Origin: a virus
Lineage: Duplodnaviria; Heunggongvirae; Uroviricota; Caudoviricetes; Crassvirales
Length of the DNA: 64,000 nucleotides
IMG/VR virus record: IMGVR_UViG_3300042691_023995
Location: 1 to 64,000 of that record
Reading direction: 5' to 3' (one strand)
Shown here: positions 3,516 through 52,474 of the stretch, piece after piece
How positions within the stretch are numbered: the stretch's first letter is position 1
Layout of the letters: the number at the start of each line of letters is the position of its first letter
Made by a program: the position numbers and the translations under genes
Notes under the pieces: generated by a model
What the model saw: only the letters and a program-made list of their open reading frames with translations
Database searches by the model: none
Told to the model about the DNA's origin: nothing

Positions 3516-3803
3516 ATGCATATGGGAAAACCCAATGATTATTACAGAGTGCTTGCACTCCTCCAGCAATTACAAGTTAGCTATCCTAATTACAATATGG
3601 GTAGACATATAGCCACTGCGCTAGATGAGTATGGAGATGTGTGGGGACTTACAGATAGAGAGATATTGTTTGCTCTGGAGAAGTATAAGGCTGAGCTGGA
3701 TATGGATGTCCCACATACGGACGAGAGTGAGATAGACCAGATTATAAAGGAGGGGATGAATCTGGAGAATATACTAAAAGAAGAAGATGGCGAAGACTAT
3801 TAA
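3516..3803 (+). CDS. hypothetical protein (95 aa)
   Basis: Complete ORF. No motif. Confidence 0.4.
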   Translation: MHMGKPNDYYRVLALLQQLQVSYPNYNMGRHIATALDEYGDVWGLTDREILFALEKYKAELDMDVPHTDESEIDQIIKEGMNLENILKEEDGEDY

Positions 3804-4122
3804 AAAAACTACATACGTAAATGCTGAGCTTGATTGGGCAGAACAGCAGCTTTCCTCATGGAAGGCTTATGTGGATGCCAATCCCCTGCATGAACTTAAG
3901 GATAGAATTGAGTGGAAACCAACGGCTAAAGGAGGCATGCTTCCTATGGTGATCGCATCAATCGAAGCACAGGGTAAGTTTATACAGGAAACAATGAAGA
4001 ACTACTTAGCTCTTCTTGAGGTGGTGGAGAAACTACGTGAGAAAGAGGAAGCTAAAGTGGAAATCAGAGGTAATGGAGAACTAAGCTCCATGGCTGAAGA
4101 CTTCCTTAAGAGCAGAAGATAA
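3787..4122 (+). CDS. candidate small terminase subunit (position-based)
   Basis: 111-aa gene whose stop overlaps the terL start; helical/charged. The call rests on position only. Confidence 0.3.
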   Translation: MAKTIKKTTYVNAELDWAEQQLSSWKAYVDANPLHELKDRIEWKPTAKGGMLPMVIASIEAQGKFIQETMKNYLALLEVVEKLREKEEAKVEIRGNGELSSMAEDFLKSRR

Positions 4123-6149
4123 TGAACGAGCTTAAGAGCATAGACTACAAAGACTGGTTTATTAACCAGGGGCGTCTGCCTGACCGTGAGTCTGCAGAGT
4201 ATAAGCCGTTTTTTGACTTTCATAGAGAAATATGCTTGAACGGGTGCTTAATGAACGGGGTGTATATCAACCCATTCCTTTACTGGCACCTGAATGTTTG
4301 GCATACAGAGGTGGATGTTGTAGATGAAAGAGGACGCATCTTCCAGAAATATGCAAATCCCCTGTTACGTGATAACGAATGGATTGTGACAAATGAGATT
4401 GACAGGGCACAACAAGATAAAAAGGGCTTGGTGATACTAGGAATACGACGTTTTGCCAAGTCTGTTTTAGAGGCTTCTTACATAGGGTGGGGCGCAACAT
4501 TTGATGAAAACTCCCAGAATGTGATCGCTGGGTTAAATGCCCCCGACATAAAGCTGATCACAGATAAGCTGGACAAGGGCCTCAACTTCCTTCCTGAAGC
4601 ATGGAGATGGCAGAGAGTTGAGGACAACTGGAAAAACCAAGTCACCCTAGGTATTAAGACTCGTGGAGGAGAACGTATACCATTTTCTCAAATCCTCATC
4701 CGTAACTTGGATGAAGGTAATAACGAAGAAGCTATTGCAGGTACCAAACCTCGTAAACTAATCATTGACGAGATTGGTAAGGGCAACTTCCTCAGAGGCT
4801 TTCAGGCAGCTGTGCCAGGTTTCACCACACCTTATGGTTGGGGATGTTCTCCTCTACTTACAGGTACAGGTGGTGACATGAAGAAATTCATGGATGCCAA
4901 GAGCCTAATGTTTGACGTGGACAACTTCAACTTTCTCACTTATAACAATGAGAAAGATGACAGAAGGGTGCACGGACTTTTCATTTCCTATAAGTATAGG
5001 ATGGAAGCTAAGGAAGAATCCACACTTGGAGCATTCCTTGGACATTCAGAGGACAGCGATTTGAACAATGTCCCTATGCTTGTAAGTAATGAGGAGAAAG
5101 CAAAGGAGATAACAGAGAACAATCTCGAACGCCTTAAAAAGGCTGGAGATAGAGTGGCCTATCTGAAGGAAAAGATGTACTATCCTATGGAGGTGGATGA
5201 CATCTTCCTGAATGAGGACACAAATATATTTGACATAGAAGCAGCCAAGCGTCAAAAAGGTAGGTTGCTCATGCAGGGGCGTACAGGAACTCCTGTTATT
5301 CTGTTTCATGATGGTGAGAACATCAGCCATGAGTTTACAGATAAACAGCCCATAACCAACTTCCCCCTAAAGAACAGTGACTTGAAAGACGCTCCTGTTG
5401 TCATCTACGAATTTCCCATCGAAAATCCTCCATATGGACTTTATGTGGCTGGTGTGGACCCATATAGACAAGGTCAAGCTGCATATTCCACCTCTCTTGG
5501 TAGTGTGTACATTTATAAAAGAATGCATGACATAACAGGAGAGAAATATCAGGATATGTTCGTAGCTTCGTACTGCGCTAGACCTGAAAAGAAGGAAACA
5601 TGGGAAGAACAGGCTAGATTGCTCATCAAATATTACAATGCTAGAACGCTTTGTGAGAATGATGACATCTCCTTCATAGAATACATGAAAGCAAAGGGAG
5701 ATGCACACTATCTAGAGAAACAACCTGACTGGCTGAAAGAAGTGGTGCCTGGAACAACAGTGAAACGTGACTATGGTGTACACCGTTCTGCAGATAAGAT
5801 AAGAGACTACCTGCATAACTGTCTGAAGAAGTATATGGAGGCTGTGATATATCAGGAGAAGGATGAAGATGGAAAGGTGATTAAAGAAGTGACAGGTGTA
5901 TCAAAGATATTTGATCCCGTGCTGTTGGAAGAGATAATTCAGTATAACGATCAAGGTAACTTTGACCGTATTGTGGCTGCAGAACTTGCTATTGCTCAGG
6001 CTCTTAAGATGGACCCTGTGATGGGCAAGGTGGGAGGATCATCAGATCCTAGAGTGAGTGCGATATTCAAACCCAACAAGAAGAACGTATTGTTCACAGA
6101 ATCTCGTGGGTTATTTAATAAAAGGAAAAAAAGTAAACTATTTTTATAA
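4122..6149 (+). CDS. terL: terminase large subunit
   Basis: 675 aa. Deviant Walker A LGIRRFAKS (about 4438-4464). Walker B KLIIDEIGKG (about 4759-4779). C-terminal RNaseH-like nuclease motif YVAGVDPYRQG (about 5449-5466). Sits immediately upstream of the portal. Confidence 0.85.
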   Translation: MNELKSIDYKDWFINQGRLPDRESAEYKPFFDFHREICLNGCLMNGVYINPFLYWHLNVWHTEVDVVDERGRIFQKYANPLLRDNEWIVTNEIDRAQQDKKGLVILGIRRFAKSVLEASYIGWGATFDENSQNVIAGLNAPDIKLITDKLDKGLNFLPEAWRWQRVEDNWKNQVTLGIKTRGGERIPFSQILIRNLDEGNNEEAIAGTKPRKLIIDEIGKGNFLRGFQAAVPGFTTPYGWGCSPLLTGTGGDMKKFMDAKSLMFDVDNFNFLTYNNEKDDRRVHGLFISYKYRMEAKEESTLGAFLGHSEDSDLNNVPMLVSNEEKAKEITENNLERLKKAGDRVAYLKEKMYYPMEVDDIFLNEDTNIFDIEAAKRQKGRLLMQGRTGTPVILFHDGENISHEFTDKQPITNFPLKNSDLKDAPVVIYEFPIENPPYGLYVAGVDPYRQGQAAYSTSLGSVYIYKRMHDITGEKYQDMFVASYCARPEKKETWEEQARLLIKYYNARTLCENDDISFIEYMKAKGDAHYLEKQPDWLKEVVPGTTVKRDYGVHRSADKIRDYLHNCLKKYMEAVIYQEKDEDGKVIKEVTGVSKIFDPVLLEEIIQYNDQGNFDRIVAAELAIAQALKMDPVMGKVGGSSDPRVSAIFKPNKKNVLFTESRGLFNKRKKSKLFL

Positions 6150-8743
6150 TGGCTATCATTAGATATACCAAGGATGCTACGATTAGATATGCCTATCTAA
6201 ACATATTCCCTGATCAGTTCAAGACTGACAAGGAAAAGCAAGATGAGAGTTGGATAAAGAACACCATGGACTACTTTGCAAACAAGGCATATGCTGAGTA
6301 TGTAAAGAATCGTGACACCTTTGTCAAGAATTATGACTTAATGAAAGGCATCCTTCGCATGGAGGACTTCTATCAAGAACCTCAGGTGAGAAGTTTTACA
6401 GATATGATGACAGCTGATTTACAGCTTCCTGCATATGTAAAGATGTATTCCATCATAACCACTCCTGTTAACGAGCTGGTTGGCGAGATATCAAAACGTC
6501 CAGACACCTTCCGTGTTAAGGCATTTGATGATGACAGTAAAGCTGAAGAGCTACAGTTTAAGACAGAGATTCTTCAGCAATACGTTTTAAATGAGGCTAA
6601 ACAAAAAATCATACAGTCTGCTGCTCTAAGTGGAGAAGAAATTTCTGATGAGGAATTGCAGCAGATGAGTTTTGAACAAGTGAAAGAACAATTGGATGCT
6701 TACACATCTGTGGCTGAAAAATGGGCCAACCATGTTCTCACTTGTCAGAAAGCAGAGTTTAACTTAAAAGAAAAGTCAGAAGACGCCTTCCGTGATATGT
6801 TGATATCTGGAAGGGAGTTCTATCACATATATGAAGACAACTCAAAACTTGGATTTAATATTGAGGTGGCTAACCCAAAGAACACTTGGTTTCTTACAAC
6901 TCCTGATCGTAAGTGGATCTCTGATCCTACAGGTAGAGCTCAGGGGGCTTATGCCGCTGGTACAGTTCAGGTTATGGAGCTTTCAGAAATCATTGAGAGT
7001 ATTCCTGACCTCACCAAAGAAGAGATTGATCACTTACGTTCATCTCTTCAAGACTATGGATTGATTAATGTACGTGAGTCCAACCTTGGTAATCCTGATG
7101 CGATTCCTGGTATAGACTCTGTAATGTATGATACATATGATCCTCTTGTTCTTCAAACTCGTATGATTATTGAATCAGAGATGAAGGAGAACAATGATGG
7201 ATTAAAAGACTTCTTGGGACTTACATCTAACGTATCTTCCTTTGGATACAAATACGTTGTTGTTCGTTGTTACTGGATTAGTAAGAAGAAGATTGGTAAG
7301 CTCATCTATCTAGATGAATTGGGCAACGAACAGTCTGTTCTGGTAGACGAGAACTACAAATCTGGTACTGTTCCTACACAACAGAGTTTGGAGTGGGGAT
7401 GGATTAATCAGTGGTATCAGGGTACAAAGATTGGTCCAGACATCTATCACATCAAACCATTCAAGCTTCTTAACTATTGTCCCATCATTGGTACAACTTA
7501 TGAAGTGAAGAACACGGAGGCTAAATCTCTGGTGGATTTGATGAAGCCTTTCCAAGTGTTGTACAACGTTTGTATGAACCAGTTGTACAAATTGCTTGAG
7601 AAGGAAGTGGGTAAGGTGTATTTGACTTCCATCAGACATATTCCTGTTCCAAAGGATGGTGATGCTCAAGATGCATTAGACATCTGGGAAATGGAAGCAC
7701 GTAACAGGGGTGTTGTATTTATTGATGATAGCCCTGAGAACTTAAAGAGTCCTTCAAGCTTCAACCAGTTTAGGGATATTGACCTTACACGTACACAGGA
7801 GATTCAATCTCGTTATACACTTGCTCAACAAATGAAGAATGAATGTTGGGAACTAGTAGGTTTGTCTAAGCAACGTCTTGGTTCTGTATCAGCTAGTGAG
7901 TCTGCAACAGGAACTAACACAGCCATTCAACAATCCTATTCTCAGACAGAACCTTTGTTTGTAGCACATGAATATGTTCTTGGACAGCTATATCAAGCCA
8001 TCATTGATGCTGCCTTGTATGTAGAATCCAAGAAGCCTCAGTCTACACTCTCTTACATTACAAATGAAGGAGAGTCAGCATTTGTTTCTGTAAATGGTTC
8101 TGATTTAAGATTCCGTGATTTGAAAGTGTTCTTGACTAATCGTCCTGAGGATACACAAATGTTTAATGAGCTTCGTCAACTTGCTCAGGCTGTTATTCAG
8201 AACGGTGGAAGCTTGTACGATGTGATTGAGCTTTACAGCACCAAGTCTATGAGAGCCATGAAGAAGGTGTTCAAAGATTTGCGTGATAAACAAGATGCCA
8301 TCCAGCAACAGCAATTGCAACAAAAACAGCAAGAGCTTGATCAGCAACAACAACAAGTTGCAGCTCAATTGCAACAAGCTCAATTGCAACATGAACAACA
8401 AATTGCTCATGATGATTATCAGAAAGAGCTTGATAGAATCAATAAGAAAGAGATTGCTATAATTTCAGCCACAGGTTATGGAAAAGTGGCTTCCGAAGAT
8501 GCAAACTCTAATGCTGTTCCTGATGTGTTGGAAGTGAGCAGGCTTGCTAATGAAGAAACATCTGCAGCAAATCAACATCAGGCAAAGCTTATGGAAATAG
8601 CATCCAAAGAAAGACAGGCTGCTGAAAAGCTAGCTCTGGAAAGAGAGAAGCTTCAGGTGGATAGAGAAAACCAAAAGAATGACTTAGCCGTAGCTAAAGA
8701 AAATGCTAAAGGAAGAGCTAAGCAACCTAAATCCAATAAATAA
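6149..8743 (+). CDS. portal protein (864 aa) with a Gln-rich coiled-coil C-terminal extension
   Basis: Position directly after terL (ATGA overlap) and its size. The C-terminus QQQLQQKQQELDQQQQQVAAQLQQAQLQHEQQ (about 8290-8410) is followed by charged coiled-coil. Confidence 0.6.
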   Translation: MAIIRYTKDATIRYAYLNIFPDQFKTDKEKQDESWIKNTMDYFANKAYAEYVKNRDTFVKNYDLMKGILRMEDFYQEPQVRSFTDMMTADLQLPAYVKMYSIITTPVNELVGEISKRPDTFRVKAFDDDSKAEELQFKTEILQQYVLNEAKQKIIQSAALSGEEISDEELQQMSFEQVKEQLDAYTSVAEKWANHVLTCQKAEFNLKEKSEDAFRDMLISGREFYHIYEDNSKLGFNIEVANPKNTWFLTTPDRKWISDPTGRAQGAYAAGTVQVMELSEIIESIPDLTKEEIDHLRSSLQDYGLINVRESNLGNPDAIPGIDSVMYDTYDPLVLQTRMIIESEMKENNDGLKDFLGLTSNVSSFGYKYVVVRCYWISKKKIGKLIYLDELGNEQSVLVDENYKSGTVPTQQSLEWGWINQWYQGTKIGPDIYHIKPFKLLNYCPIIGTTYEVKNTEAKSLVDLMKPFQVLYNVCMNQLYKLLEKEVGKVYLTSIRHIPVPKDGDAQDALDIWEMEARNRGVVFIDDSPENLKSPSSFNQFRDIDLTRTQEIQSRYTLAQQMKNECWELVGLSKQRLGSVSASESATGTNTAIQQSYSQTEPLFVAHEYVLGQLYQAIIDAALYVESKKPQSTLSYITNEGESAFVSVNGSDLRFRDLKVFLTNRPEDTQMFNELRQLAQAVIQNGGSLYDVIELYSTKSMRAMKKVFKDLRDKQDAIQQQQLQQKQQELDQQQQQVAAQLQQAQLQHEQQIAHDDYQKELDRINKKEIAIISATGYGKVASEDANSNAVPDVLEVSRLANEETSAANQHQAKLMEIASKERQAAEKLALEREKLQVDRENQKNDLAVAKENAKGRAKQPKSNK

Positions 8744-9273
8744 TGTTTGATAGGCTAATAGACCTACTAACAGGCTGGTTTGAACAATTGCTTCCTTTCT
8801 TCATCGTAAGGGATTATGAGGAAGCAGTTGTTCTAAGGTTTGGTAGGTTCCACAAGGTGGCTAAACCTGGTTTCCACTGGCGCATCCCTTTTGTGGATGA
8901 GCCTATGGAACAGCATGTTGTGGTCACTACTATTAGCCTGGCTCCCCAGAGCTTATACACAAAAGACAAGCAGAACATTGTGGTGAAAGGTGTGATTAAG
9001 TATAGAATCTCTGATGTTCAAACCTTCCTTCTGGAAGTGTATGATGCTCAGGACGCTATATCAGATATGACCCAGTCTATCGTTAAGAACATCATCATGG
9101 ATAAAACCCTGGATGAATGCATAGATCCTGAGATAGACAACACCCTCACGAAGAAAGCTAGGGTGGAAGCTAAGAAGTGGGGAGTGGAAATCCAACAGGT
9201 AACCCTCACTGACCTAGCTCCAATTCGTTCTTTCAGGCTTATAAACGATACCATCGTAAACAAACTTGATTAG
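8743..9273 (+). CDS. SPFH / band-7 (stomatin-prohibitin-HflK/C) domain protein
   Basis: AVVLRFGRFHKVAKPGFHWRIPFVDE closely matches the SPFH core (compare HflK/C GVVLRFGKF...PGL.FK.PFID). The amphipathic N-terminus fits membrane association. 176 aa. Confidence 0.7.
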   Translation: MFDRLIDLLTGWFEQLLPFFIVRDYEEAVVLRFGRFHKVAKPGFHWRIPFVDEPMEQHVVVTTISLAPQSLYTKDKQNIVVKGVIKYRISDVQTFLLEVYDAQDAISDMTQSIVKNIIMDKTLDECIDPEIDNTLTKKARVEAKKWGVEIQQVTLTDLAPIRSFRLINDTIVNKLD

Positions 9274-9372
9274 AGTAAATTAGATTAATGCTATATTATC
9301 TACGAAAAACCCTCATATAGCAACATAACTCTTTGCTATTCAATTATATCTATCTATTTTTACAGGCGTATA

Positions 9373-9395
9373 AACCAAATTAAAATAAACTACAT
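9373..9395 (+). promoter_or_regulatory. conserved late leader motif, copy 1 (aaaccaaattaaaataaactacat, then ATGG)
   Basis: An almost identical 23-26 nt element recurs immediately upstream of ATG 12458. Confidence 0.4.
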
Positions 9396-10682
9396 ATGGC
9401 TGAGAACCTTGATAGTCCGTCATTCGGCAACTTTAGTATTGAAAATACTATGGAAATGGGACCTGGGGGAGCAGAATTGTTAAACGATCTGTTGTCTCCT
9501 GAGACTTCTACAAGCAACCCTGATGGTATTCAGGAGATTGTAAAGAATGTAGAAGATCCTGCCCCTGCTCCAAAACCTGATGTTCCTAAGGGAAAAGAAA
9601 TTGTCCCTAAAGAAGATGGTAAAGAACCTACAGGTCAAGACCTCATCTCAAGCTTCCTTGGTGATAACACTGATGAAGAAGAGGCTGAGGATACACAACC
9701 CACTGACAATCAACCAGTTAAAAAGAAAGCACCTGAAGCAAAACCTGCTGAAGCTGCTCCTGCTGATGAAGAAGAGAGCGAAGAGGGTGATGAGCAAGTG
9801 AGTCAATTTACAGCTCTTTCCCGTGATCTCTTTAAACTTGGTGTCTTTTCAAAAGATGAAGAAGAGGAAGATGTAAACATCTCCACTCCTGAAGAATTCC
9901 TTGAGCGCTTCCAAAATGAGAAGAAGAAAGGAGCTGTTGAAATGGTACAAAACTTCATTGGTCAGTTTGGTGAAGACTATCAACAAGCATTCGACGCTAT
10001 ATTCGTAAAAGGTGTTAGTCCTAAAGAATACTTTGGTACCTACAATAATGTAGTGAGCTTTTCTGAAATGGATCTGTCACAAGAGAACAATCAAGTGGCA
10101 GTGATAAAGCAAGCATTAGCTGACCAAGGTTTTGAGCCTGAGGACATTAACACAGAAGTTGAAAGACTTAAAAACTATGGTGATCTTGAGAGCGTAGCTA
10201 CAAAGCACCATAAAGTGTTGGTTAAAAAGGAAGCCGCAAAGCTCTCACAAATGGAGCAAAAGGCTGAACAAGAACTCCAACAAAAACAGGCAATTAAAAA
10301 CCAATACATCCAAAACGTTCAACAAGTTTTACAAGATAAGTTGAAATCTAAGGAGTTTGATGGAATCCCCATCAATCCCAAGTTGGCTAACGAACTACAA
10401 GACTTCCTACTGGTAGATAAGTACAAAACTCAGTCTGGTGAAACCCTGACTGATTTTGACAAGACCATCTTGGAATTGAAGAGACCTGAGAACCATGCAA
10501 CAAAAGTGAAGGTTGCTCTCTTGCTCAAAATCCTAGAAAAAGATCCCACCCTATCTACCATCCAAAAAACAGGCGTTTCAAAGAAATCAAACGAACTGTT
10601 TGGGGAAGTGGCTAGACAAGTGACTCGCACTAAGACAGCAAGTAGCTCTCAGCCTTCTAAACAAAATTCATGGTTCATTTAA
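9396..10682 (+). CDS. putative scaffolding protein
   Basis: 428 aa with a highly acidic, Pro/Glu/Asp/Lys-rich N-terminal half and a coiled-coil C-terminal half. Located between the portal region and the major capsid gene. Confidence 0.5.
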   Translation: MAENLDSPSFGNFSIENTMEMGPGGAELLNDLLSPETSTSNPDGIQEIVKNVEDPAPAPKPDVPKGKEIVPKEDGKEPTGQDLISSFLGDNTDEEEAEDTQPTDNQPVKKKAPEAKPAEAAPADEEESEEGDEQVSQFTALSRDLFKLGVFSKDEEEEDVNISTPEEFLERFQNEKKKGAVEMVQNFIGQFGEDYQQAFDAIFVKGVSPKEYFGTYNNVVSFSEMDLSQENNQVAVIKQALADQGFEPEDINTEVERLKNYGDLESVATKHHKVLVKKEAAKLSQMEQKAEQELQQKQAIKNQYIQNVQQVLQDKLKSKEFDGIPINPKLANELQDFLLVDKYKTQSGETLTDFDKTILELKRPENHATKVKVALLLKILEKDPTLSTIQKTGVSKKSNELFGEVARQVTRTKTASSSQPSKQNSWFI

Positions 10683-10709: not shown

Positions 10710-12263
10710 ATGGCAATTCAAACAATCCCAGGTCTAACTGGCTTCACGTATGCTCGTGTCGCATCTATGGACAAGCGTGCTGTGGGTAAGCTAACTGACG
10801 CTAACCACCTGGAGAGCTTTCACTCAACTGAGCCTGCTGATTACGATAAGAAAATCATCAGTCTCTATACACAGAGCTCTCTTTACAGCAATGACTTCCT
10901 AGACATGATCAACAAAAGCACGCCTTATTACATTGATAATAATAGCGATGCTTGGAAATGGCAAGTAGCTGTTCCCTACAAATTCCCTAAGATTATCGAC
11001 ATCCCTGCTTCAACTCTTGAGTTGAGCAAGCCTGGTATCGATGGTCAAGAGTTCCAATTGGTAATTGACACAAACGAGTTCTCTAAGAACGCAATCGTTT
11101 CTGTTGGTTCTCGCCAATATGGTCCTCGCTTTTACGTTATTAAGGATCCAGTTCCTTGGAACATGGGCTTCCTTTATAGCTTCACTTTGGTTACAGACAA
11201 TCCAACTGTAGACTTCGTTAGCCCTACCTTCTTGCAAGTGGGTATCGAACTTGAGTTGGTTGATGCTGCAATTGGTGAGTTCGATCAAGATTTGTTAGGT
11301 CTTCCTCGTTTGGGTGAGCAAATCACAATGTTTGAATCTTTGGGTTCTGCATATGGTTTTGAGCACAAAATCACTGAGTGGGCTGATGACAAAATGATGC
11401 GTGACTCTGCAGGACGTCCTTTGGATATCCTTGTTTATGCACCTCAGCGTCGTAACCAACTTCCTTTGACTCGTAACGATGTTAAATGGGAGCCATTCAT
11501 TGAGTTCTGGATGCGTAAGTCTATGCTTGAGTTGAAAGTTAAGCGTATGATTTGGTCTCGTCCTGGTACTGTTAAGACTAACGGTAGCAAGCAAGAACTT
11601 AAGCGTACATCTGCTGGTGTTTATCACAGAATGCGTAATAACGGTAACTTGGTTCAGTACAACCGTGGAGAATTCACTGCAAACTTGATTCGTTCAGTGT
11701 TTGGTGATTTGTTCTATCGTCGTGTGGATGTTAAGGACCGTCGTGTTAAAATGTATACTAATGAAGCAGGTTTTGACGTGTTCCAACAAGCTTTGAAGAC
11801 AGACGCTTTGAACAGTGGTTTGACATTCATGGCTGATAGCGGAAACCGTTACATGCAAGGAGAAGGTCAACACATCACTTACAACTTTGCATTCGATGCA
11901 ATGGTTACTCGTGAGACTGGTCGTGTTGAATTGATTCACTTGAAAGAACTTGACCTGCCTCAATCTAACCTTGAATTTGGTCAGAACAAGAAGTCAACTC
12001 CTGTATTCATGGTGTTCGACGTATCTCCAATGTCTGATGGTTCTTTGGTTAATAACATCCGTGAAGTTCGTATGAAGGGTGCACCTTCTATGACTTGGGG
12101 TTATATCGATGGAACTCGCCACCACTTGGGCTTTGCTAAGTCTCAGGGTATGAGCTCTGCGAACAAATTCCCAGGATATGAAATCTGGATGAAGGATCGT
12201 TGTGATGTATTCATTGAAGACTTGTCTCGTACAGTCTTGATTGAGGAAATCCCACAATTCTAA
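10710..12263 (+). CDS. major capsid protein (candidate)
   Basis: 517 aa gene directly after the scaffold, with an A-rich leader and a multi-hairpin terminator region directly after it. The order portal - X - scaffold - MCP is canonical. Confidence 0.6.
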   Translation: MAIQTIPGLTGFTYARVASMDKRAVGKLTDANHLESFHSTEPADYDKKIISLYTQSSLYSNDFLDMINKSTPYYIDNNSDAWKWQVAVPYKFPKIIDIPASTLELSKPGIDGQEFQLVIDTNEFSKNAIVSVGSRQYGPRFYVIKDPVPWNMGFLYSFTLVTDNPTVDFVSPTFLQVGIELELVDAAIGEFDQDLLGLPRLGEQITMFESLGSAYGFEHKITEWADDKMMRDSAGRPLDILVYAPQRRNQLPLTRNDVKWEPFIEFWMRKSMLELKVKRMIWSRPGTVKTNGSKQELKRTSAGVYHRMRNNGNLVQYNRGEFTANLIRSVFGDLFYRRVDVKDRRVKMYTNEAGFDVFQQALKTDALNSGLTFMADSGNRYMQGEGQHITYNFAFDAMVTRETGRVELIHLKELDLPQSNLEFGQNKKSTPVFMVFDVSPMSDGSLVNNIREVRMKGAPSMTWGYIDGTRHHLGFAKSQGMSSANKFPGYEIWMKDRCDVFIEDLSRTVLIEEIPQF

Positions 12264-18842: not shown

Positions 18843-20093
18843 ATGCCTGAAAATCAATCTCTTCTGCAACAGCTGGAGCAGATGCTTCACTGGAAGAAAA
18901 GCAAAAAGTTTTATGCAGACAAACTAAACATTACAGAGAATGAAGTGGATGAGCTGTTGAAAGAATTAAAAGGTTCACAAGATGCTCAGAATGAGGCAGA
19001 GATAGCAAGCTATATTGGAGAACTGGAAGATGCAATTGTAAGGTTTTCCGAGGATATACAGAAGGGAACAGGTGAGGTGGTGTTCAACTCTAAGGAAGAA
19101 ATCAAGAGTTTGGACGAGTTGATTGAAAAGTGCAAGATTGATACAGACAAGTGGGAAATAACTAAATACGTACAAAACTACTGGGGAAATGCTGAACAGC
19201 CCCACTACCAAGTTAAAGCTTGGCTAGGAAAGAAGAAAGGTGAGCAGATATTCCAGGACAGCTTTGTTAGCTTCCTTGAGACATATGAACCTGTTTCTCC
19301 TGAAATAGTAGCTCCTAAGTTTGATTCATCCAAGAAAGAAGCATGTCTAATTATCAACAAGCAGGATTCCCATTTAAACAAGCTAGACGTAGGAGGAGAG
19401 AATGATATAGAACAGCGCTTCGGTGATTTCATCCAGAGGGTGGAAATAATCTTAAACCAAGCTGCTCTAGCTAACAATCTCACAGATATCAAATACATCA
19501 TTGGTTCTGATGAGTTCAACAGTGAGTTCACTAATACAACTACAAAGGGCACCCCACAACAAAACATCCTATCCTATCACGATTCTTTCCAAGCAATCTG
19601 TGATCATGAGGTGAGCGTGATAAACTTGCTTCTTCAAAGAGGTGGAGATGTGGAGGTGATATTTGTAGCTGGCAATCATGATGAATATGTAGGATGGCAT
19701 TTAGCCAGTTGGTTGAAAACCTACTTTAGAAACGAGGAGCGTGTGTTCTTTGACATCTCTCCAAGATATAGGAAGTACGTAAGTTATGGTAGCTCTGCAA
19801 TGATGTTTAATCACGGAGATGCTCTAAAGCCTGCTAAACTTGCGCACTTGTTCCCAATGGAGTTTAAACATGGATGGTCAGATCATGATAACTTCTACAT
19901 CTTTACAGGTGACAAACACCATGAGATGAGTTTAGATTTTAACGGTATTAAGTTCTATCAGCTTCCAGCTTTCTCCACAGCTAAAAGTAGCTGGGATGAT
20001 AAAAATGGATACACAATAAGCAAGGGAGAGGTGACAGGATTTTTGATAGACTACGATAACGGAATAACGAATATATTCAAACAGTATTTATAA
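18843..20093 (+). CDS. calcineurin-like metallophosphoesterase domain protein (C-terminal half), coiled-coil N-terminal half
   Basis: The compact motif series CDHEV - GGDVEV - VAGNHDE (about 19668-19686) and later FNHGD / GDKHHE fits the D-x-H ... GD ... GNH[DE] ... H ... H metallophosphoesterase signature. Confidence 0.5.
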   Translation: MPENQSLLQQLEQMLHWKKSKKFYADKLNITENEVDELLKELKGSQDAQNEAEIASYIGELEDAIVRFSEDIQKGTGEVVFNSKEEIKSLDELIEKCKIDTDKWEITKYVQNYWGNAEQPHYQVKAWLGKKKGEQIFQDSFVSFLETYEPVSPEIVAPKFDSSKKEACLIINKQDSHLNKLDVGGENDIEQRFGDFIQRVEIILNQAALANNLTDIKYIIGSDEFNSEFTNTTTKGTPQQNILSYHDSFQAICDHEVSVINLLLQRGGDVEVIFVAGNHDEYVGWHLASWLKTYFRNEERVFFDISPRYRKYVSYGSSAMMFNHGDALKPAKLAHLFPMEFKHGWSDHDNFYIFTGDKHHEMSLDFNGIKFYQLPAFSTAKSSWDDKNGYTISKGEVTGFLIDYDNGITNIFKQYL

Positions 20094-20821
20094 TGTCAAC
20101 TTTTAGGAAGTTAGTTTCAGATGTACGCTCTATGCACAAGTTGCTCTCCACGGACAACTTGATCACGGATAGAGCTGTTATGTCTGAAATTAAGAACAAT
20201 GCCTTCCTCCTGATAAAGCGTGAGACTAACTTGAGGAAGTTATGGGCAACCGATACAGTTTTTACTACCATCCCCTGCTTGGAGATGGTGGAAGTTCCTA
20301 TTTCTGAATGCTGTGATTACGCAGATCCTTGCACTGTAGCTAGAACTAAATTCAAGCTACCTCGTATTACTGAAGGTAACTATCAGTATGTGATTCAGGG
20401 TGTTTATTCTATAAACGCTATGAGTGGTCAAGGAAAGAAACTTAAGGAAATAACCATCAACCGATACGTAAACTTGCTCAAACTTCCCATCATTAAAAAG
20501 GAAGAATACTACTGGATTTCTAATGGATATTTGTATGTGAACAACCCTCTTTTGAAAGCAATCAGACTTGTTGCTCTTTTCGAGGAAGATGTTCCAAATG
20601 CAATTATGTATCCTGAATGTGGATGCGGAACTCCTGATTATACACCAGAGCAACTCTGTGTAAATCCATTAGACAAGGAGTCACCAGTTCCAGGCTATCT
20701 GGAAAAGCAAGTGTTAGAGCTCACTTCTCAAAAGCTTCTCTCTACGTATTTCAGATTGAAAACAGACATCACAAGTGATGGCGTTGATGGTCAAGCACCT
20801 AACGCCCCAAACTTGAGATGA
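20093..20821 (+). CDS. hypothetical structural protein (242 aa)
   Basis: ATGA overlap with the metallophosphoesterase gene. Confidence 0.4.
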   Translation: MSTFRKLVSDVRSMHKLLSTDNLITDRAVMSEIKNNAFLLIKRETNLRKLWATDTVFTTIPCLEMVEVPISECCDYADPCTVARTKFKLPRITEGNYQYVIQGVYSINAMSGQGKKLKEITINRYVNLLKLPIIKKEEYYWISNGYLYVNNPLLKAIRLVALFEEDVPNAIMYPECGCGTPDYTPEQLCVNPLDKESPVPGYLEKQVLELTSQKLLSTYFRLKTDITSDGVDGQAPNAPNLR

Positions 20822-21307: not shown

Positions 21308-22279
21308 ATGTCATACTATTACAAATATAATTTCATCAGCCCTGAGCCTGTGTATTCCACTGTTAAGGAGGAATTCAAAAGTTATTTTGATACAGGAGCT
21401 GTTGACGATTTAATGTTCCCTACCTACTTAGACAAGTGTCTAAGAAAGCTAGGTAGAACCACTTATGTGATTTCTCAGGAAATCCTACACATCTGTGACT
21501 ACGAAGCTAGACTTCCAGACAACTTCTATGCTGTTCGTGAAGCATGGCTTTGTACAGCTGTAAATGGCTATCCCTATCAACAGGCTAACTCTTTCTATTC
21601 ACAGGCTGCCAGTTCTACAACAATTCAGGTGAGCCCTGTAATTGTGTATGGTAACCCTTGTAATGAGGGTGGATGTGACAATCCTTTCTGCCCTAAGTGT
21701 ATGCCTGATTTGGTACAAGCTGTCTACAAGACAAACAACCAAGCCCCTGTGCTATATCGAAAGGAATATCTTCTCAAGCCTGGTAATATCTCCGCACAAG
21801 ATAACTGTGGTGTAGACTATACCAGCAATTGGGAATTCTATCAAGAGGCACCTCCTCTACGTGAGTTCACTCCAGGATCTGCTGGTTATGACTCATTTGA
21901 CATCAGAGACAATAAGTTTGTAACAAACTTCCGAAATGGTGTTGTACATCTTCTTTTCTATGCTACAGAATATGATGCTGGTGGAAATCAGCTAATTCCT
22001 GACAACTATCGTATCAGGGAGTTTATTGAGGCTTTCATCAAATACAAAGTGATTGAAACTCTCACCAATCAGACCAACGATGAGACTTTCAACCAGCTTC
22101 AAACCAAGCTAGCTTTCTATAAACAACAGGCTGATGAAGCATTCATCATGGCTGATATTGAGATTAAGAAGCAAGATCCTTGGACTAAGCAGCGTAGGAT
22201 TAAGAATGACTTGAACAGATTTAATATGTATGAACTCCCTAACCGTACTAACAGATATGGTTGGAGACGAAATAACTAA
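21308..22279 (+). CDS. Cys-rich structural protein (323 aa)
   Basis: Complete ORF. CNEGGCDNPFCPKC cluster. Confidence 0.4.
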   Translation: MSYYYKYNFISPEPVYSTVKEEFKSYFDTGAVDDLMFPTYLDKCLRKLGRTTYVISQEILHICDYEARLPDNFYAVREAWLCTAVNGYPYQQANSFYSQAASSTTIQVSPVIVYGNPCNEGGCDNPFCPKCMPDLVQAVYKTNNQAPVLYRKEYLLKPGNISAQDNCGVDYTSNWEFYQEAPPLREFTPGSAGYDSFDIRDNKFVTNFRNGVVHLLFYATEYDAGGNQLIPDNYRIREFIEAFIKYKVIETLTNQTNDETFNQLQTKLAFYKQQADEAFIMADIEIKKQDPWTKQRRIKNDLNRFNMYELPNRTNRYGWRRNN

Positions 22280-22284
22280 TACTA

Positions 22285-25200
22285 ATGGCTGAATTGGAAA
22301 AGGGCAATATTAAACAGGAGTACAATAATGCTACCACTGGTCTTAACATGGACCAAACTGTTAACCAGATCCAAAAGGGTAGGTTAACTTATGCATTGAA
22401 TGCTGCTGTTGAAAACTTTGATGCTAATTCTGTAAACTATCAGAATGAGCCAGGGAACGAACTTTGTGTTACGTTCCCTTCTGGCTTTATACTTATAGGT
22501 ACCCACTTCATCCAAGAGAAGAACAAACACATATTCTTCATCACTAATCCAGAAACTGGCGGAAGTCAGATTGGATATATGGAGAACAATGATTGTGTGT
22601 ATCGTGTGATTGTAAATGCTCCCTGTCTTAACTTTAACATTGACCATCCCATTCATAAGGTGGCGCATAAGATTACTAATTGCACCACTGAAATATATTG
22701 GACAGATGGATTTAATCCTAGGAGATACCTAGATATTGATGATGTACCAAAAGTTCTAAAATCTGGAACTCCTTTCTGCGATCCAGAATATACAGACGAT
22801 CTAGACTGTAATCAACTTAAGCTTCAACCCAACTTTAAGATTCCTCAACTGGAGGTAACTGATGTTACAAGCACAGGTAATCTGATTGCTGGTACATATC
22901 AGTTTGCTATACAATACTCTGATCCTCAGGGTAATCCGTACACTTCCTACTATTCCATCACTAACCCAACACCAATCGCTGATCCATTCATTACATCAGT
23001 GAACTTCAACTATCCTGTTGGGAAATCTATCATCCTCAATATAAGCAATCTTGAGGACACTGGACTATACCAGTATTTCAACCTGGCAGTGATTAAGACA
23101 GTGAATGACATCACTTCTGTAGAACTGGTGGGCACCTACTATATTGACAACCTCCAGAAACAAATCACATACACTGGTCAGAACGTTACACAGATTCGTT
23201 TGACCATCAATGATATATTTGAGAAGTTCCCTTATTATGACGTTGCACAAGACCTCACAAATGCGCAAGATGTTTTAATCTGGGACAATCTTACATCTAT
23301 TGATCGTATCAACTATCAAAGCATTGCTAATCAGATTCCTCTGCTATGGGAAACTTATCGTATCCCTGCCACAGAAAACTATGCAGACGAACTGAATGCC
23401 ACCAATCTCAGAGGTTATCTAAGAGATGAGGTGTATGCTTTTGAAATAGTATTCTTGCTTAAGAATGGTAAGCAAACTGATGGATTCCACATTCCTGGTA
23501 GAATCAAAGGTCCTGCAGAGAACTTGCAACCTGATGTTCCAGATACCAACCCAGACTTTATAGGCGTTCCTGATTACACATCTGGAGGAGTAGGATATTC
23601 CCCATATTGGAAAATCTACAACACAGGATCTGTAATTGGTACAAGTCCTGGTTATTCACCAGCTCCTGACTACAAAGGACCATACCAATATGGTCAATTT
23701 GCATATTGGGAGTCTACAGACACCTATCCTTGTAACAAAGATGTATGGGGTGATTTAGCTGGCCAACCAATCAGACATCACAAGTTTCCTGATATTAATG
23801 TAAGCCCTGCTTACGAATCAAAGATATTCACAGGACCTGGTGGAATGGTGATGGGTAATGATGCAGTGTTCCCTATTGGTGTACGTATTGACGTACAACA
23901 GGTATCTGCTCTCATTCAGTCTTCTAGTCTTACAGATGATCAGAAGAGTGATATTGTGGCATTTAAGATTGTTCGTGCTGATCGTGGCACTAATAAGTCT
24001 ATCATTGCTAAGGGTATTCTTAGGAATGTAAATACATACGAGAGAGAAGAAGAGATTTACTACTATCCTAACTACCCATACAACGATCTTAACGCAGATC
24101 CATTCCTTAATACAACAAACAATGCCTATTCACAAATCTGTGATGGGTATAATGTATTTATAGACACACTTGCTGTAGATCCTGCTGGAGGACCTGACTT
24201 TGCAGAAATAGAATGGACAGATTGTAATACAAACAAACTTACAAAGAAGAAGGTTCTTGCCATTGGTGTCTATCCATTTTGCTCAATTGGTAAACCTAGA
24301 ATCCTTGGACCTGCAACAGGTAAAGTGGGACTTTCTACATATGAAGTGTGGACTGCCCAGGTTTGTAACACAAGTCCTTTTGGATTTGCACAAGGTGGTA
24401 GAATTGAGTGGGATGATATCTACACTGGTATAACCACAGATTGGGTATCTGGATGGCCCACATTCCCAACACTTACATTATATGTAGTTCCTGGAACTGT
24501 TCCTGTACAAATTGAAGGACCTGGTGAAATATGTTTCAATGGTCCTACACTTGTGACAGGACCTGATTGTAAAGGAGAAAATCCTCAACCAGGATTTACA
24601 GAGAAATACAGACAGATATTCAACTCTCCTGAAACTTCATTTGGACAGCCATTCTTGGGTGATATTCTAAAGCTTGAGAGTGTGATGTTTGGTAGAGGCA
24701 AGGCTCACTTTGTTGAGGTGAAGGATAATGCTAAGTATAAGCTCTTAACAGAAGAAGCTCAGCGTGATGCTCTTGAAAGTGCTGAAGACTTAGGAGATAT
24801 CACCACACCGTTTAACGCCACTGCTATGTTTACAGCATATCAGGCGTATTTGACAATATATGTAAACGGTATCACAAGAAAGAACTATGCCTACTCTTTC
24901 AACTCTATAGCTGATTATAACTATGGAGTGGGAGTTCCTGATAACCTTGGCATCAAGCAAAGAACTCTAGACATTGCTAGATATTTGATTCCTGGTGTTT
25001 TGAACGTTGGTGATATACATAATATCAACAACTTCCAAAGAGAATCATCTGTCTACCTAAGAACTGACCTAACTAAGACAGCTCTTCCTTTCCCAGACCA
25101 GAGCCCTAATATGCTATCTGGAGGAAATCCTATAGTGACAGACATTTCGAGATTTACCATCTCTGAAAAAAACAAATGTCAAGCTCCTGCTAGGGAAGAA

Positions 25201-52001: not shown

Positions 52002-52057
52002 CGCTATATTATATCGTTTATTTCCTCATAACTCATTGAAAATACATTAATAACAAC

Positions 52058-52065
52058 TAATTTTG
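52058..52065 (+). promoter_or_regulatory. -7 box taattttg (TAnnTTTG) upstream of the fibre operon
   Basis: Perfect consensus 5 nt before ATG 52071, implying a leaderless or very short-leader transcript. Confidence 0.3.
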
Positions 52066-52070
52066 CTTAT

Positions 52071-52466
52071 ATGCGAACTGCTGCAATTTGCCCAACATGT
52101 CCCTCATATGAGAACGCTTTGTGCGTGCTCTATAACGGAGAATATCTGACCAATATCGACGTAAACCCTTTAGACTCTCTAGAGGTAGCCCTTGGCAAGA
52201 TAAATGATAACCTCGTGCCTGTATCAGGAACAGGAGCTCCCACAGCTGGAGCTATCTATTTAGGACAGCTCTATGTAAGAACCACCGTGGCTCCAAACCT
52301 CTACTTCGCTAAGTCAACAGGTACAGGTGCTTTGGACTGGAGGATTCTCCTTTCTATTCCATATACAGGAGCCCCTGAATATGCTGATAACGCTGCTGCC
52401 ATAGCTGGTGGTTTAACAGATGGTCAAGTCTACCGTACAGGTGACGTATTGAAAATCGTACATTAA
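52071..52466 (+). CDS. small protein (131 aa) immediately upstream of the mega-fibre
   Basis: Complete ORF, Gly/Ala/Thr-rich with an N-terminal CPTCP...C motif. The fibre gene starts 9 nt after its stop. Confidence 0.45.
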   Translation: MRTAAICPTCPSYENALCVLYNGEYLTNIDVNPLDSLEVALGKINDNLVPVSGTGAPTAGAIYLGQLYVRTTVAPNLYFAKSTGTGALDWRILLSIPYTGAPEYADNAAAIAGGLTDGQVYRTGDVLKIVH

Positions 52467-52474
52467 TTTAGAAC

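Follow-up and report, generated by a model that had tools for sequence, protein, structure and literature searches.

Why viruses carry SPFH (band-7) proteins is a recurring question, for which phage genome papers offer speculation alone. SPFH proteins universally organise membrane microdomains and act as gatekeepers for membrane proteases. To our knowledge, every characterised member of the superfamily is located at a membrane and regulates proteases or channels there. The question is raised here by a gene in a window of 64,000 nucleotides (the whole stretch of phage DNA that was analysed), which a sequence-only reading had described as encoding a stomatin- or HflC-like protein in the slot where a prohead protease normally sits. 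We found no literature linking SPFH proteins to phage lysis cassettes, to the portal or to crAss head assembly. Viral SPFH domains have been reported with no function assigned (PMC7760394, PMC10269572, PMC13239085), and one 2026 preprint mentions a domain resembling HflK/C in a gut crassvirus, on which it only speculates.

The open reading frame at 8743-9273 encodes a genuine SPFH/Band-7 protein in a cut-down form. The AVVLRFGRFHKVAKPGFHWRIPFVDE stretch, which had been taken for an SPFH signature, corresponds to residues 28-53 of the 176 residues. Pfam Band_7 (PF01145) matches residues 21-160 with 99.1 bits against a gathering cut-off of 23.6 (E = 4e-28), and the only other profile matches are to HflK/HflC in NCBIfam and to phrog_200 in PHROGs. 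Stomatin (human STOM, Pyrococcus PH1511) was found to be the best match in both sequence (phmmer against the PDB, 3.5e-13) and fold (Foldseek, E = 2.4e-14, TM 0.77), with HflK and QmcA also among the PDB sequence matches. The AlphaFold2 model (pLDDT 93.3, pTM 0.82) has the SPFH1+SPFH2 alpha/beta fold, and Foldseek aligned it with stomatin, HflK, QmcA, prohibitin, erlin and flotillin; the top 49 PDB matches are SPFH proteins throughout. No protease was returned for this protein by the Pfam, NCBIfam, PHROGs or fold searches. The family assignment of the sequence-only reading is thus borne out, both by profiles, which place the protein with SPFH families alone, and by the fold comparison with the stomatin/HflC family. 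The features of the locus are collected in Table 1.

Table 1. Features of the SPFH locus and its flanks, with the basis of each assignment.
Feature	Position	Strand	Basis
Large terminase gene	4122..6149	+	phrog_6681, 4e-86; overlaps portal start
Portal protein gene, 864 aa	6149..8743	+	Pfam P22_portal, 5.5e-15; phrog_6547, 4e-93
TAATG junction, portal stop/SPFH start	8741..8745	+	Sequence; 1-nt overlap
Mini-SPFH gene, 176 aa, TAG stop	8743..9273	+	ORF call
N-terminal amphipathic helix, residues 2-16	8746..8790	+	DSSP on model
SPFH1+SPFH2 core, residues 19-160	8797..9222	+	Pfam 21-160; phmmer to stomatin 19-161; strands and helices of model
Conserved C-terminal motif [IMV][RK]S[ILF]RL[IFL], residues 161-167	9223..9243	+	Family alignment
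Conserved intergenic spacer	9274..9395	+	Alignment of 14 diverse clade members
428-aa acidic protein, putative scaffold	9396..10682	+	Position and composition only
Major capsid protein, crassvirus type	10710..12263	+	Pfam Crass_capsid, 6.4e-26; phrog_11589

The genome context is that of a crAss-like phage, as judged from the capsid, portal, tail ring and muzzle genes of the late block (Crass_capsid, P22_portal, CrAss_Ring_2, CrAss_Ring_1 and crAss_MUZ, the last at 4.2e-38), and tblastn with the portal matched mostly Crassvirales or crAss-like phages. A megablast search of the head module against GenBank phages gave no match, so the module has no annotated close relative there. The SPFH gene ends a run of abutting reading frames (3787..4122, 4122..6149, 6149..8743 and 8743..9273) in which the terminase gene is the first large gene. 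The portal TAA (8741-8743) and the SPFH ATG (8743-8745) share a single nucleotide, in place of the ATGA overlap reported earlier, and in 80 related loci the distance between the portal stop and the start of the SPFH gene is about 0-5 nt.

On the 3' side, the alignment of the spacer contains two blocks that are unchanged in all 14 clade members, TTAATGCTATATTAT (9285-9299) and TCTTTG-N20-TAttTTTA (9330-9362), the second of which resembles a Bacteroidota -33/-7 promoter. The spacer motif occurs 15 times in the window versus 4.85 expected, and the -33/-7-like pattern has a single match. A scan for sigma-70 promoters and terminators over 2-13 kb gave counts at the chance level and was therefore set aside, the spacer motifs being taken from the comparative alignment. 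The spacer is the probable start of a scaffold-capsid transcription unit with a predicted promoter-like element, and the host is probably a member of the Bacteroidota. The 428-residue protein is encoded immediately 5' of the capsid gene in every related locus that reaches far enough. It is acidic (pI 4.6; 4.05 for the N-terminal 150 residues), matches phrog_16294, annotated as of unknown function, and has no Pfam match. The scaffold label given to it earlier is provisional.

The head module contains no recognisable prohead protease, as had been proposed: protease HMMs of Pfam and PHROGs matched none of the eight head-module proteins tested at 4.1-15.4 kb. The same was found for ten proteins with PHROGs only (nine at 16.4-29.1 kb and one at 52.1 kb) and for six proteins at 20.1-47.0 kb with Pfam. 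An HMM of the phage trypsin-like proteases encoded near other members of the family gave nothing at E <= 10 against all reading frames of the window, and no lysis gene adjoins the SPFH gene there. The slot itself did not survive comparison with other phages. No prohead protease is known for the Crassvirales; their hallmark gene block contains none (PMC10136315), and the structural atlas of crAss001 nowhere mentions a protease or a scaffold. The gene 3' of the crAss001 portal (gp20) encodes gp21, a small head-fibre protein (PMC10172136). Leptolyngbya phage Lbo-JY46, the best portal match among phage records, has no gene between the portal and the pre-capsid gene, and in gut phage cr6_1 this interval contains two small reading frames, both unrelated. 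Neither Lbo-JY46, the nearest relative with an SPFH-free head module, nor the gut crassviruses have a protease at this position. These protease-free slots, together with the scattered positions of the gene in other phages, leave the protease-slot description unsupported. For crassvirus head modules, a tempting inference from gene position to prohead protease function is thereby shown to be mistaken.

The protein has been reduced at both ends relative to its cellular counterparts. It shares with stomatin the SPFH1+SPFH2 topology and a helix before the first strand, at the place of the stomatin membrane hairpin, but it is only 22% identical and has no hydrophobic hairpin, coiled-coil wall or C-terminal cap. 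The N-terminal helix takes the place of the transmembrane anchor of HflC and stomatin. Of the two features that the earlier reading proposed to check, a transmembrane or an amphipathic helix, the second was found: residues 2-16 form an amphipathic helix containing D3, D7 and E14, and no transmembrane segment was predicted (maximum 19-residue Kyte-Doolittle average of 1.16, threshold 1.6). The amphipathic character is conserved across 61 diverse members of the family (hydrophobic moment of 0.61), with hydrophobic residues at positions 1, 2, 5, 6, 8, 9, 12, 13 and 16 and an acidic polar face. The Kyte-Doolittle average exceeds 1.6 in 15 of the 61, and the membrane anchor thus appears to be degenerate rather than uniformly lost. 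An acidic polar face is uncommon among helices that bind anionic bacterial membranes. With such a face and no predicted transmembrane segment, the protein could be soluble.

At the other end, only 16 residues follow the last SPFH2 strand (E148-160), and neither the coiled-coil helices (CC1/CC2) nor the cap is present. The C-terminal motif, which aligns with the stomatin "LPV" region and is modelled at low confidence in the monomer (pLDDT 54-66), is a stub at the start of the coiled-coil wall helix of full-length SPFH proteins, and nine residues remain after it. Its position 165 is arginine in 59 of 61 members and lysine in the other two. The Foldseek targets are 255-420 residues long, and the target-normalised TM scores are just 0.3-0.55. 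The protein is therefore without both the anchor and the wall by which cellular SPFH proteins form cages, and a 16-mer cage is not expected for it.

The comparison with HflK and HflC leads to a similar picture. These are the best NCBIfam profiles (84.5 bits for hflK and 61.3 bits for hflC), the fold matches include 7vhq and 9cz2, and the motif after the N-terminal helix (..VV.EGE.GV.LRFGK..) has the HflC arrangement. The equivalog cut-offs were not reached (TIGR01933, 84.5 versus 159.4; TIGR01932, 61.3 versus 134.4; PRK10930, 51.4 versus 660). Unlike HflK (419 aa), the phage protein has under half the length, and there are no paired K/C genes. In contrast to the SPFH-protease operon pairs (stomatin-NfeD/STOPP and HflKC-FtsH), no protease profile match was obtained among the window neighbours tested. 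With no transmembrane helix, the protein is not expected in the periplasm, the site of HflK/C action in E. coli.

The window protein belongs to a family of approximately 175-residue proteins (168-190 aa) that can be aligned from end to end. At 50% identity the family forms at least 150 clusters, nearly all on viral contigs. No member was found among the cultured phages in GenBank, where the sole phage match is the uncultured MW202733. Other SPFH proteins are also encoded by phages and giant viruses (PHROG 200 "lipoprotein", the "prohibitin family" proteins of Rhizobium/Agrobacterium phages, and those of RaK2-like and Vi01-like phages). These differ in being mostly longer where a length is stated (258-507 aa in BFVD; 379 positions in the PHROG 200 profile), some have a lipoprotein annotation or a coiled coil, and they match the window protein weakly (E of 1e-4 to 1e-8, partial coverage). 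The present analysis defines a distinct, very widespread, phage-only minimal SPFH protein with neither anchor nor cage wall and with no cultured representative.

The SPFH gene is intact and occupies the same slot in 80 of 80 related loci, with a dN/dS of about 0.06, and purifying selection on it is strong. Its history differs from that of its neighbours, since the SPFH phylogeny conflicts with the head genes. In the divergent crAss-like lineage L096 the SPFH protein is 54% identical to that of the window, compared with 28% for TerL, 28% for the portal and 21% for the capsid. Within the clade the order is reversed, with SPFH identities of 72-98% versus 94-100% for the capsid, and the gene is absent from the nearer relative Lbo-JY46. 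From these three comparisons the gene is best read as horizontally mobile among phages with unrelated capsids (T7-like, P22-like and crAss-like). A sliding-identity profile of the clade has a broad dip over the portal C-terminal tail and the SPFH gene, where the head module varies most. A sharply bounded recombination cassette was also considered and is not claimed, as the profile shows no clean breakpoints.

The positions of the gene in other phages vary widely. Among homologues that are 53-59% identical, those of L087, L116 and L141 lie between the crAss tail ring-2 and muzzle genes, and that of an unrelated phage (L098) lies about 2 kb 3' of a lysozyme gene. Lysis cassettes are found with the orders SPFH-Trypsin_2-Peptidase_M15_3-holin (L095), SPFH-Trypsin_2-lysozyme (L094), lysozyme-x-SPFH (L089) and SPFH-Trypsin-M15_3 (L083). 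A trypsin-like protease is the commonest specific neighbour in 56 further lineages, within two genes in about 8 and within 5 kb in about 10. The earlier proposal that the protein modulates a protease gains indirect support from these neighbours in other lineages and finds no counterpart in the window; the two other proposals of that reading, action at the membrane and counter-defence, may also apply. By eye, the N-terminal sequences of the neighbouring proteases look like signal peptides; if real, these would put the proteases across the membrane from a cytoplasmic SPFH protein. Head-module contexts include portal(DUF4055)-SPFH-Mu F (L158, L160, L161 and L092), portal-scaffold-SPFH-capsid in a T7-like phage (L128), 547aa-99aa-SPFH-scaffold-P22 coat (L147) and SPFH-TerL-portal (L155), and the post-portal slot is reused in a second, highly divergent crAss-like lineage (L096, L097 and L103). 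In all, at least six independent phage groups carry the gene within a head-morphogenesis operon (after the portal, before Mu-F, or between the T7 scaffold and capsid genes), which fits either a head-related role or chance insertion. Many other members lie in lysis, tail, replication or early-gene regions. An enrichment in head modules was considered and not adopted, as the approximately 13 of 56 lineages with the gene near head or packaging genes are, without a background model, not clearly above the expectation from head-module size.

The most plausible reading is that the SPFH gene is an accessory gene, horizontally mobile and for the most part expressed late, whose product would act at the membrane. 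Its many genome positions and its phage-only family make such a membrane helper likelier than a stand-in for a capsid protease. More specifically, and tentatively, we suggest a phage-specific minimal SPFH (stomatin-core) protein that is made late and acts on the host cytoplasmic membrane rather than on the capsid. It would be produced alongside terminase and portal, and the amphipathic helix and SPFH1 lobe would seat it on the inner face of the membrane. The SPFH core might then tune or shield a membrane-embedded target, either a protease (a host complex of the FtsH/HflKC type, or the phage trypsin-like protease where one is encoded) or a pore such as a holin, and the membrane would stay intact and energised until assembly is complete. 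SPFH proteins have been connected with channels and transporters in two reports (PMC3433786, PMC5383999). The post-portal place would then be a parking site peculiar to the clade, where the terminase-portal operon ends and just before the scaffold-capsid promoter. Identification of the target would reveal how a bare SPFH core works cage-free, and could expose a strategy, common to environmental crAss-like phages and many other phages, for controlling lysis timing or the membrane proteolysis of the host late in infection.

An unlikely alternative is a head-assembly accessory, made with the portal, that nucleates or tethers the procapsid (for example as a T4 gp40-like membrane-proximal portal chaperone, or as a co-scaffold) and exits before or during packaging. 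The close coupling of the SPFH start to the portal stop in all 80 loci, the shared slot in L096/L097/L103, the other head-module contexts and the joint variability of the gene with the portal C-terminal tail all favour this role. However, the closest homologues outside the clade are not beside head genes, many members lie elsewhere altogether, the phylogeny is at odds with the head genes, and Lbo-JY46, cr6_1 and crAss001 build heads with no SPFH gene. We know of no SPFH-fold protein in any phage assembly pathway.

The protein might instead be a dominant-negative or decoy subunit that inserts beside host HflK/C, QmcA or stomatin-like subunits and opens or poisons their cages, although we regard this as quite unlikely. 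FtsH or NfeD proteolysis would then be reprogrammed, or an SPFH-linked defence disabled. The phage protein keeps the SPFH1/2 lateral-contact domains and stops a few turns into the wall helix, past a near-invariant arginine; its closest profiles are HflK and HflC, though under the family cut-offs; and phage-only distribution with horizontal spread suits a host-directed effector. Open "nautilus" HflK/C assemblies with FtsH are known (e.g., PDB 9cz2). The SPFH domains of HflK/C are periplasmic in E. coli, however, and the phage protein has no export signal. PADLOC models matched it with 0 families at E <= 0.01, and a known anti-phage defence component was also rejected on that basis. The retained contact domains and missing remainder would allow a narrower version, distinctly improbable in our estimate, in which such approximately 175-residue subunits intercalate in host SPFH rings of the HflK/C, QmcA or stomatin type, which would then stay open or fail to close. 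If true, many unrelated phages would share a portable switch by which FtsH/NfeD-type membrane proteolysis or the response to membrane stress is controlled late in infection.

We consider it very unlikely that the protein is virion-associated, either as a decoration near the portal vertex in the manner of crAss001 gp21 or as packaged cargo ejected to the membrane at entry. Like gp21, it is encoded by a small gene right after the portal that varies between crassvirus groups; gp21 is a head fibre bound beside the portal vertex, and uncharacterised proteins may have analogous roles in other crassviruses according to the authors (PMC10172136). The gene is inside virion structural operons in many lineages, and particle mass spectrometry has detected other, longer SPFH proteins in jumbo and Vi01-like phages (PMC6034870, PMC7760394, PMC10892097), but with low counts and in at least one crude preparation (PMC6034870). 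Unlike gp21, a trimeric fibre with a phi29 gp8.5-like domain, the window protein has no sequence or fold similarity to it and resembles SPFH proteins alone. A structural role is made less likely by members encoded in lysis cassettes and in replication or early regions, and transfer between T7-like, P22-like and crAss-like capsids fits poorly with a specific capsid-binding site. Finally, functional replacement of a prohead maturation protease, for which the position between portal and putative scaffold and the lack of protease HMM matches among the window proteins tested could be cited, has next to no probability and is effectively refuted by the absence of any protease family or fold match and of catalytic residues from SPFH domains, by the many other positions of the gene, and by Crassvirales and P22-like phages with no prohead protease at this position (PMC10136315).

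No tRNAs were found in the window. For its ORF-poor region at 52-64 kb, reassignment of a stop codon was considered and rejected, as no single reassignment brings back long reading frames; the region probably consists of many small minus-strand genes.

The product of the open reading frame directly after the portal gene was found to be a true SPFH core. Its sequence, which holds the AVVLRFGRFHKVAKPGFHWRIPFVDE stretch at residues 28-53, matched Pfam Band_7 (PF01145) over residues 21-160 with 99.1 bits (gathering score 23.6, E = 4e-28), and the solved structures matched by sequence were those of stomatin (3.5e-13), HflK (6e-12), and QmcA. An AlphaFold2 model was built from a 61-sequence alignment (pLDDT 93.3, pTM 0.82) and compared with the PDB using Foldseek. 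The best 49 matches were all SPFH proteins, led by stomatin (2.4e-14, TM 0.77) and followed by HflK/C, QmcA, prohibitin, erlin, and flotillin. The best-scoring profiles were HflK and HflC, both far under their cut-offs, and neither the fold searches nor Pfam, NCBIfam, or PHROGs gave a protease or other non-SPFH family for this protein. The sequence-only reading was thus correct in assigning the protein to the SPFH/band-7 family, and the outcome named as its refutation, placement in a non-SPFH family by profile searches, did not occur.

No transmembrane segment was predicted in the SPFH protein (maximum 19-residue hydropathy average of 1.16). The place taken by the membrane anchor in HflC and stomatin is instead occupied by a strongly amphipathic N-terminal helix with a mean hydrophobic moment of 0.61. 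The pattern is kept throughout the family, with hydrophobic residues at positions 1, 2, 5, 6, 8, 9, 12, 13, and 16 and acidic residues at positions 3, 7, and 14. A conserved [IMV][RK]S[ILF]RL[IFL] motif directly follows the last strand, and position 165 is R in 59 of the 61 family sequences and K in the other two. The protein ends 9 residues beyond the motif and therefore lacks the coiled-coil wall and cap with which stomatin, HflK/C, prohibitin, and flotillin build cages. The phage protein has neither a membrane anchor nor a cage wall.

Features of the window and segments of the SPFH protein
Feature	Position	Strand	Size	Remarks
Large terminase (TerL)	4122-6149			phrog_6681
Portal	6149-8743			P22_portal, phrog_6547
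SPFH gene	8743-9273	+	176 aa	
N-terminal helix	residues 2-16			AlphaFold2 model
SPFH1+SPFH2	residues 19-160			AlphaFold2 model
C-terminal tail	residues 161-176			low confidence in monomer model
Spacer	9274-9395		122 nt	
Acidic protein	9396-10682		428 aa	pI 4.6; PHROG of unknown function, no Pfam match
Major capsid protein	10710-12263			Crass_capsid
Tail ring protein 2	20093-20821			
Tail ring protein 1	21308-22279			
Muzzle protein	22285-27360			
Giant ORF	35053-46989		3978 aa	no Pfam match
Giant ORF	46977-52001		1674 aa	

The window genome is that of a crAss-like phage. The gene at 3787-4122, terL, the portal gene, and the SPFH gene each abut or overlap the next. The junction of the portal and SPFH genes, described earlier as an ATGA overlap, is in fact TAATG with an overlap of 1 nt (TAA 8741-8743, ATG 8743-8745). 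When 14 diverse relatives were aligned, the spacer that follows was conserved more strongly than the coding sequence on either side. Within it lie an invariant TTAATGCTATATTAT motif and an element, TCTTTG-N20-TAttTTTA, that resembles a Bacteroidota -33/-7 promoter. From the abutting genes and this promoter-like spacer, the SPFH gene appears to close the terminase-portal unit, and the scaffold-capsid unit would have its own start. The 428-aa protein is a putative scaffold by its position and composition. The TTAATGCTATATTAT motif (consensus yTAnTGCTrTATTAT) occurs in 15 copies in the window versus 4.85 expected, with other sites at 985, 2030, and 51998 and about 10 between 55.8 and 63 kb on the minus strand, and probably serves the phage as a promoter or regulatory element common to the capsid operon and presumed early genes. 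Most copies lie on the minus strand in a region of small ORFs.

Close relatives of the SPFH gene were found in 146 IMG/VR stretches, and 80 loci, from freshwater or wastewater samples, were retrieved. In all 80 the gene is intact and has 176 codons, its start lies some 0-5 nt from the stop codon of the portal gene, and the order TerL-portal-SPFH-428aa-capsid is kept in every locus long enough to show it. The median dN/dS relative to the window copy was 0.06, calculated over the 31 comparisons free of saturation at synonymous sites. Within the clade, identities are 72-98% for the SPFH protein, 94-100% for the capsid, 77-99% for the full-length portal, and 60-99% for the 428-aa protein. In every pairwise comparison, the head module varied most in the Q/K/E-rich C-terminal portion of the portal (about 180 residues, 8200-8743), and the dip in identity there extends over the neighboring SPFH gene. 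The window gene and all 80 clade copies (L001-L080) stop with TAG (9271-9273), a codon that ends 1 of 21 confident late genes of the window; a conserved in-frame TAA lies five codons further on, within the invariant spacer motif.

When 1.84 billion representative proteins were searched exhaustively without a profile, 5785 matches were obtained at E ≤ 1e-3. Of the best 150 clusters (50% identity level), almost all have a length of 168-190 aa and can be aligned from end to end. These proteins, here called mini-SPFH, are a large family. Scanning 185,579 species-representative genomes with a sequence pattern returned four copies only, each on a MAG contig: a 59-kb contig in a Sediminibacterium bin (L102, JBBAJX010000014.1; 73% identical), a crAss-like fragment binned with Saccharibacteria, a 295-kb Bryobacterales contig, and a short Gammaproteobacteria contig. 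The Bryobacterales copy lies in a tail-gene module with ORFs judged by eye to be tape-measure-sized and lambda K/J-like, and is probably in a prophage. Among GenBank phage records the only member is the uncultured MW202733, annotated as 'prohibitin-like' and adjoining TerL; none was found there in a cultured phage. The mini-SPFH family is widespread, specific to phages, and strongly constrained by purifying selection. One clade copy (P0114) is labeled as coming from a Cytophagia MAG; this label, the Sediminibacterium bin, and the Bacteroidota-type promoter motif point to freshwater Bacteroidota as hosts of the window clade.

A prohead protease in a head-module slot is the expectation from lambda and HK97, and the sequence-only reading had placed the SPFH gene where such a protease normally sits. 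Judged by portal similarity, the nearest phage record is that of Leptolyngbya phage Lbo-JY46 (TerL 40%, portal 29%, and capsid 26% identical); its order is TerL-portal-407aa-capsid with nothing between the portal and 407aa genes. In gut phage cr6_1 the slot after the portal holds two small ORFs of no relation to the SPFH gene. In crAss001 the gene after portal gp20 encodes head-fibre gp21 (PMC10172136). A protease is absent from the crassvirus hallmark gene block, and capsid assembly in these phages has been described as not yet established (PMC10136315); the crassvirus structural atlas mentions neither protease nor scaffold. The protease slot is thus a lambda/HK97 expectation misapplied to these phages, and the particular surprise of that reading, an SPFH protein in place of a protease, is not supported.

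Settings of the mini-SPFH gene in other phages
Locus	Phage	Setting
L096, L097, L103	second, very divergent crAss-like lineage	portal-86aa-SPFH-380aa-capsid
L087, L116, L141	third crAss-like lineage (L087 SPFH 53% identical)	between tail ring protein 2 and muzzle protein
L098	unrelated; closest non-clade homologue (59%)	~2 kb downstream of lysozyme gene; near integrase and Por_Secre_tail protein
L095		SPFH-Trypsin_2-Peptidase_M15_3-holin
L094		SPFH-Trypsin_2-lysozyme
L089, L090		lysozyme-x-SPFH
L083, L084		SPFH-Trypsin-M15_3
L099		nucleotide-metabolism and DNA polymerase genes
L088		SNF2 helicase context
L100		arrays of small genes, probably early
L104		lambda-like tail module
L128	T7-like	portal-scaffold-SPFH-capsid-tube
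L147		547aa-99aa-SPFH-scaffold-P22 coat
L158, L160, L161, L092		portal(DUF4055)-SPFH-Mu F
L155		SPFH-TerL-portal
L157		Trypsin_2-SPFH-capsid
L123, MW202733		TerL-SPFH

The genome position of the mini-SPFH gene varies, and the end of the terminase-portal operon is its place in the window clade. On high-GC podovirus-like contigs (L083, L084, L089, L090, L094, L095) it lies within the lysis cassette, and with several unrelated head types (L128, L147, L158, L160, L161, L092, L155, L157, L123, MW202733) it lies within the head or packaging operon. The SPFH protein of the L096-type lineage is 54% identical to that of the window, versus 28% for TerL, 28% for the portal, and 21% for the capsid. The SPFH protein is here less diverged than the head proteins, a reversal of the order of rates within the clade, and this indicates horizontal transfer. 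The gene moves horizontally between phages whose capsids and hosts are unrelated (GC 29-69%). The large terminase of L096 (3243-6476, 1077 aa) contains an intein (Intein_splicing match).

The two nearest same-strand genes on each side were surveyed with Pfam in 56 lineages (85% clustering). The neighboring ORFs matched trypsin-like proteases (8), portal families (5), terminases (5), Mu F (4), capsid families (4), crAss tail genes (3), cell-wall hydrolases (about 7), and replication or nucleotide-metabolism genes (about 8); no single neighbor is conserved across the 56 lineages. A late (virion or lysis) operon is the commonest setting. Among recurring partners the most specific is a serine protease, and judged by eye its N-terminus resembles a signal peptide. 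In about 10 of the 56 lineages a trypsin-like protease is no more than 5 kb away from the SPFH gene; none was found in the window. A periplasmic protease within a lysis cassette is unusual. Trypsin_2 proteases near the SPFH gene were seen in L083, L094, L095, L106, L108, L110, L111, L145, L157, and L160, often in lysis cassettes beside endolysin and holin.

SPFH-protease pairings are universal (HflKC-FtsH, stomatin-NfeD, and prohibitin-AAA proteases). The recurrent protease neighbor echoes them, which by analogy gives indirect backing to the earlier suggestion that the phage protein may modulate a host protease. The true SPFH core without anchor or wall, its phage-specific spread, selection, mobility, and variable position, and its place at the operon end in this clade fit a self-contained accessory function aimed at something common to many hosts; given the roles of SPFH domains elsewhere, the likeliest target would be a protease or channel within the cytoplasmic membrane, together with that membrane. 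We tentatively propose, with somewhat less than even confidence, that the protein is a late-acting, membrane-proximal modulator. Late in infection it would sit close to the cytoplasmic membrane and tune a membrane-embedded protease or pore, and membrane integrity or lysis timing would be protected as the outcome. Against this proposal, the polar face of the N-terminal helix is acidic, the SPFH protein lacks an export signal whereas the neighboring proteases appear to be exported, and in the window phage neither a protease gene nor a lysis gene adjoins the SPFH gene.

A head-assembly accessory would agree with the tight coupling to the portal gene in the window and with the location of the gene inside head operons, which was seen in six or more independent phage groups and in one case lies between the scaffold and capsid genes of T7 type. 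The SPFH findings fit a capsid-specific role less well than a membrane-directed accessory role, and we regard head assembly as less likely, though a serious alternative. Slightly less probable again is a protein that enters the SPFH cages of the host as a decoy or poison subunit, with which the truncation pattern is compatible. Virion decoration or ejected cargo, for which crAss001 gp21 offers a precedent in the equivalent slot and other phage SPFH proteins have been seen at low level by mass spectrometry, is given a low probability. A literal protease substitute is effectively excluded.

SPFH genes in phages have been noticed earlier through automatic annotation and speculation only (PMC10269572, PMC7760394, PMC13239085, and a 2026 preprint). 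In the literature and databases searched, no description was found of an end-to-end conserved, anchorless, and wall-less 175-aa family. The mini-SPFH proteins offer a solid and testable way into the question of how a bare SPFH core serves a virus.

The 52000-64000 region has few long ORFs under code 11, and the fragments are mostly on the minus strand with GTG or TTG starts; no single stop-codon reassignment restored long ORFs. No tRNA genes were found in the window. At 52-56 kb the GC content rises to 0.46-0.47, with overlapping ORFs of 481 aa (-) and 386 aa (+). Going by position, the two giant ORFs may correspond to the RNA polymerase or cargo proteins that crass-like phages package in their virions.
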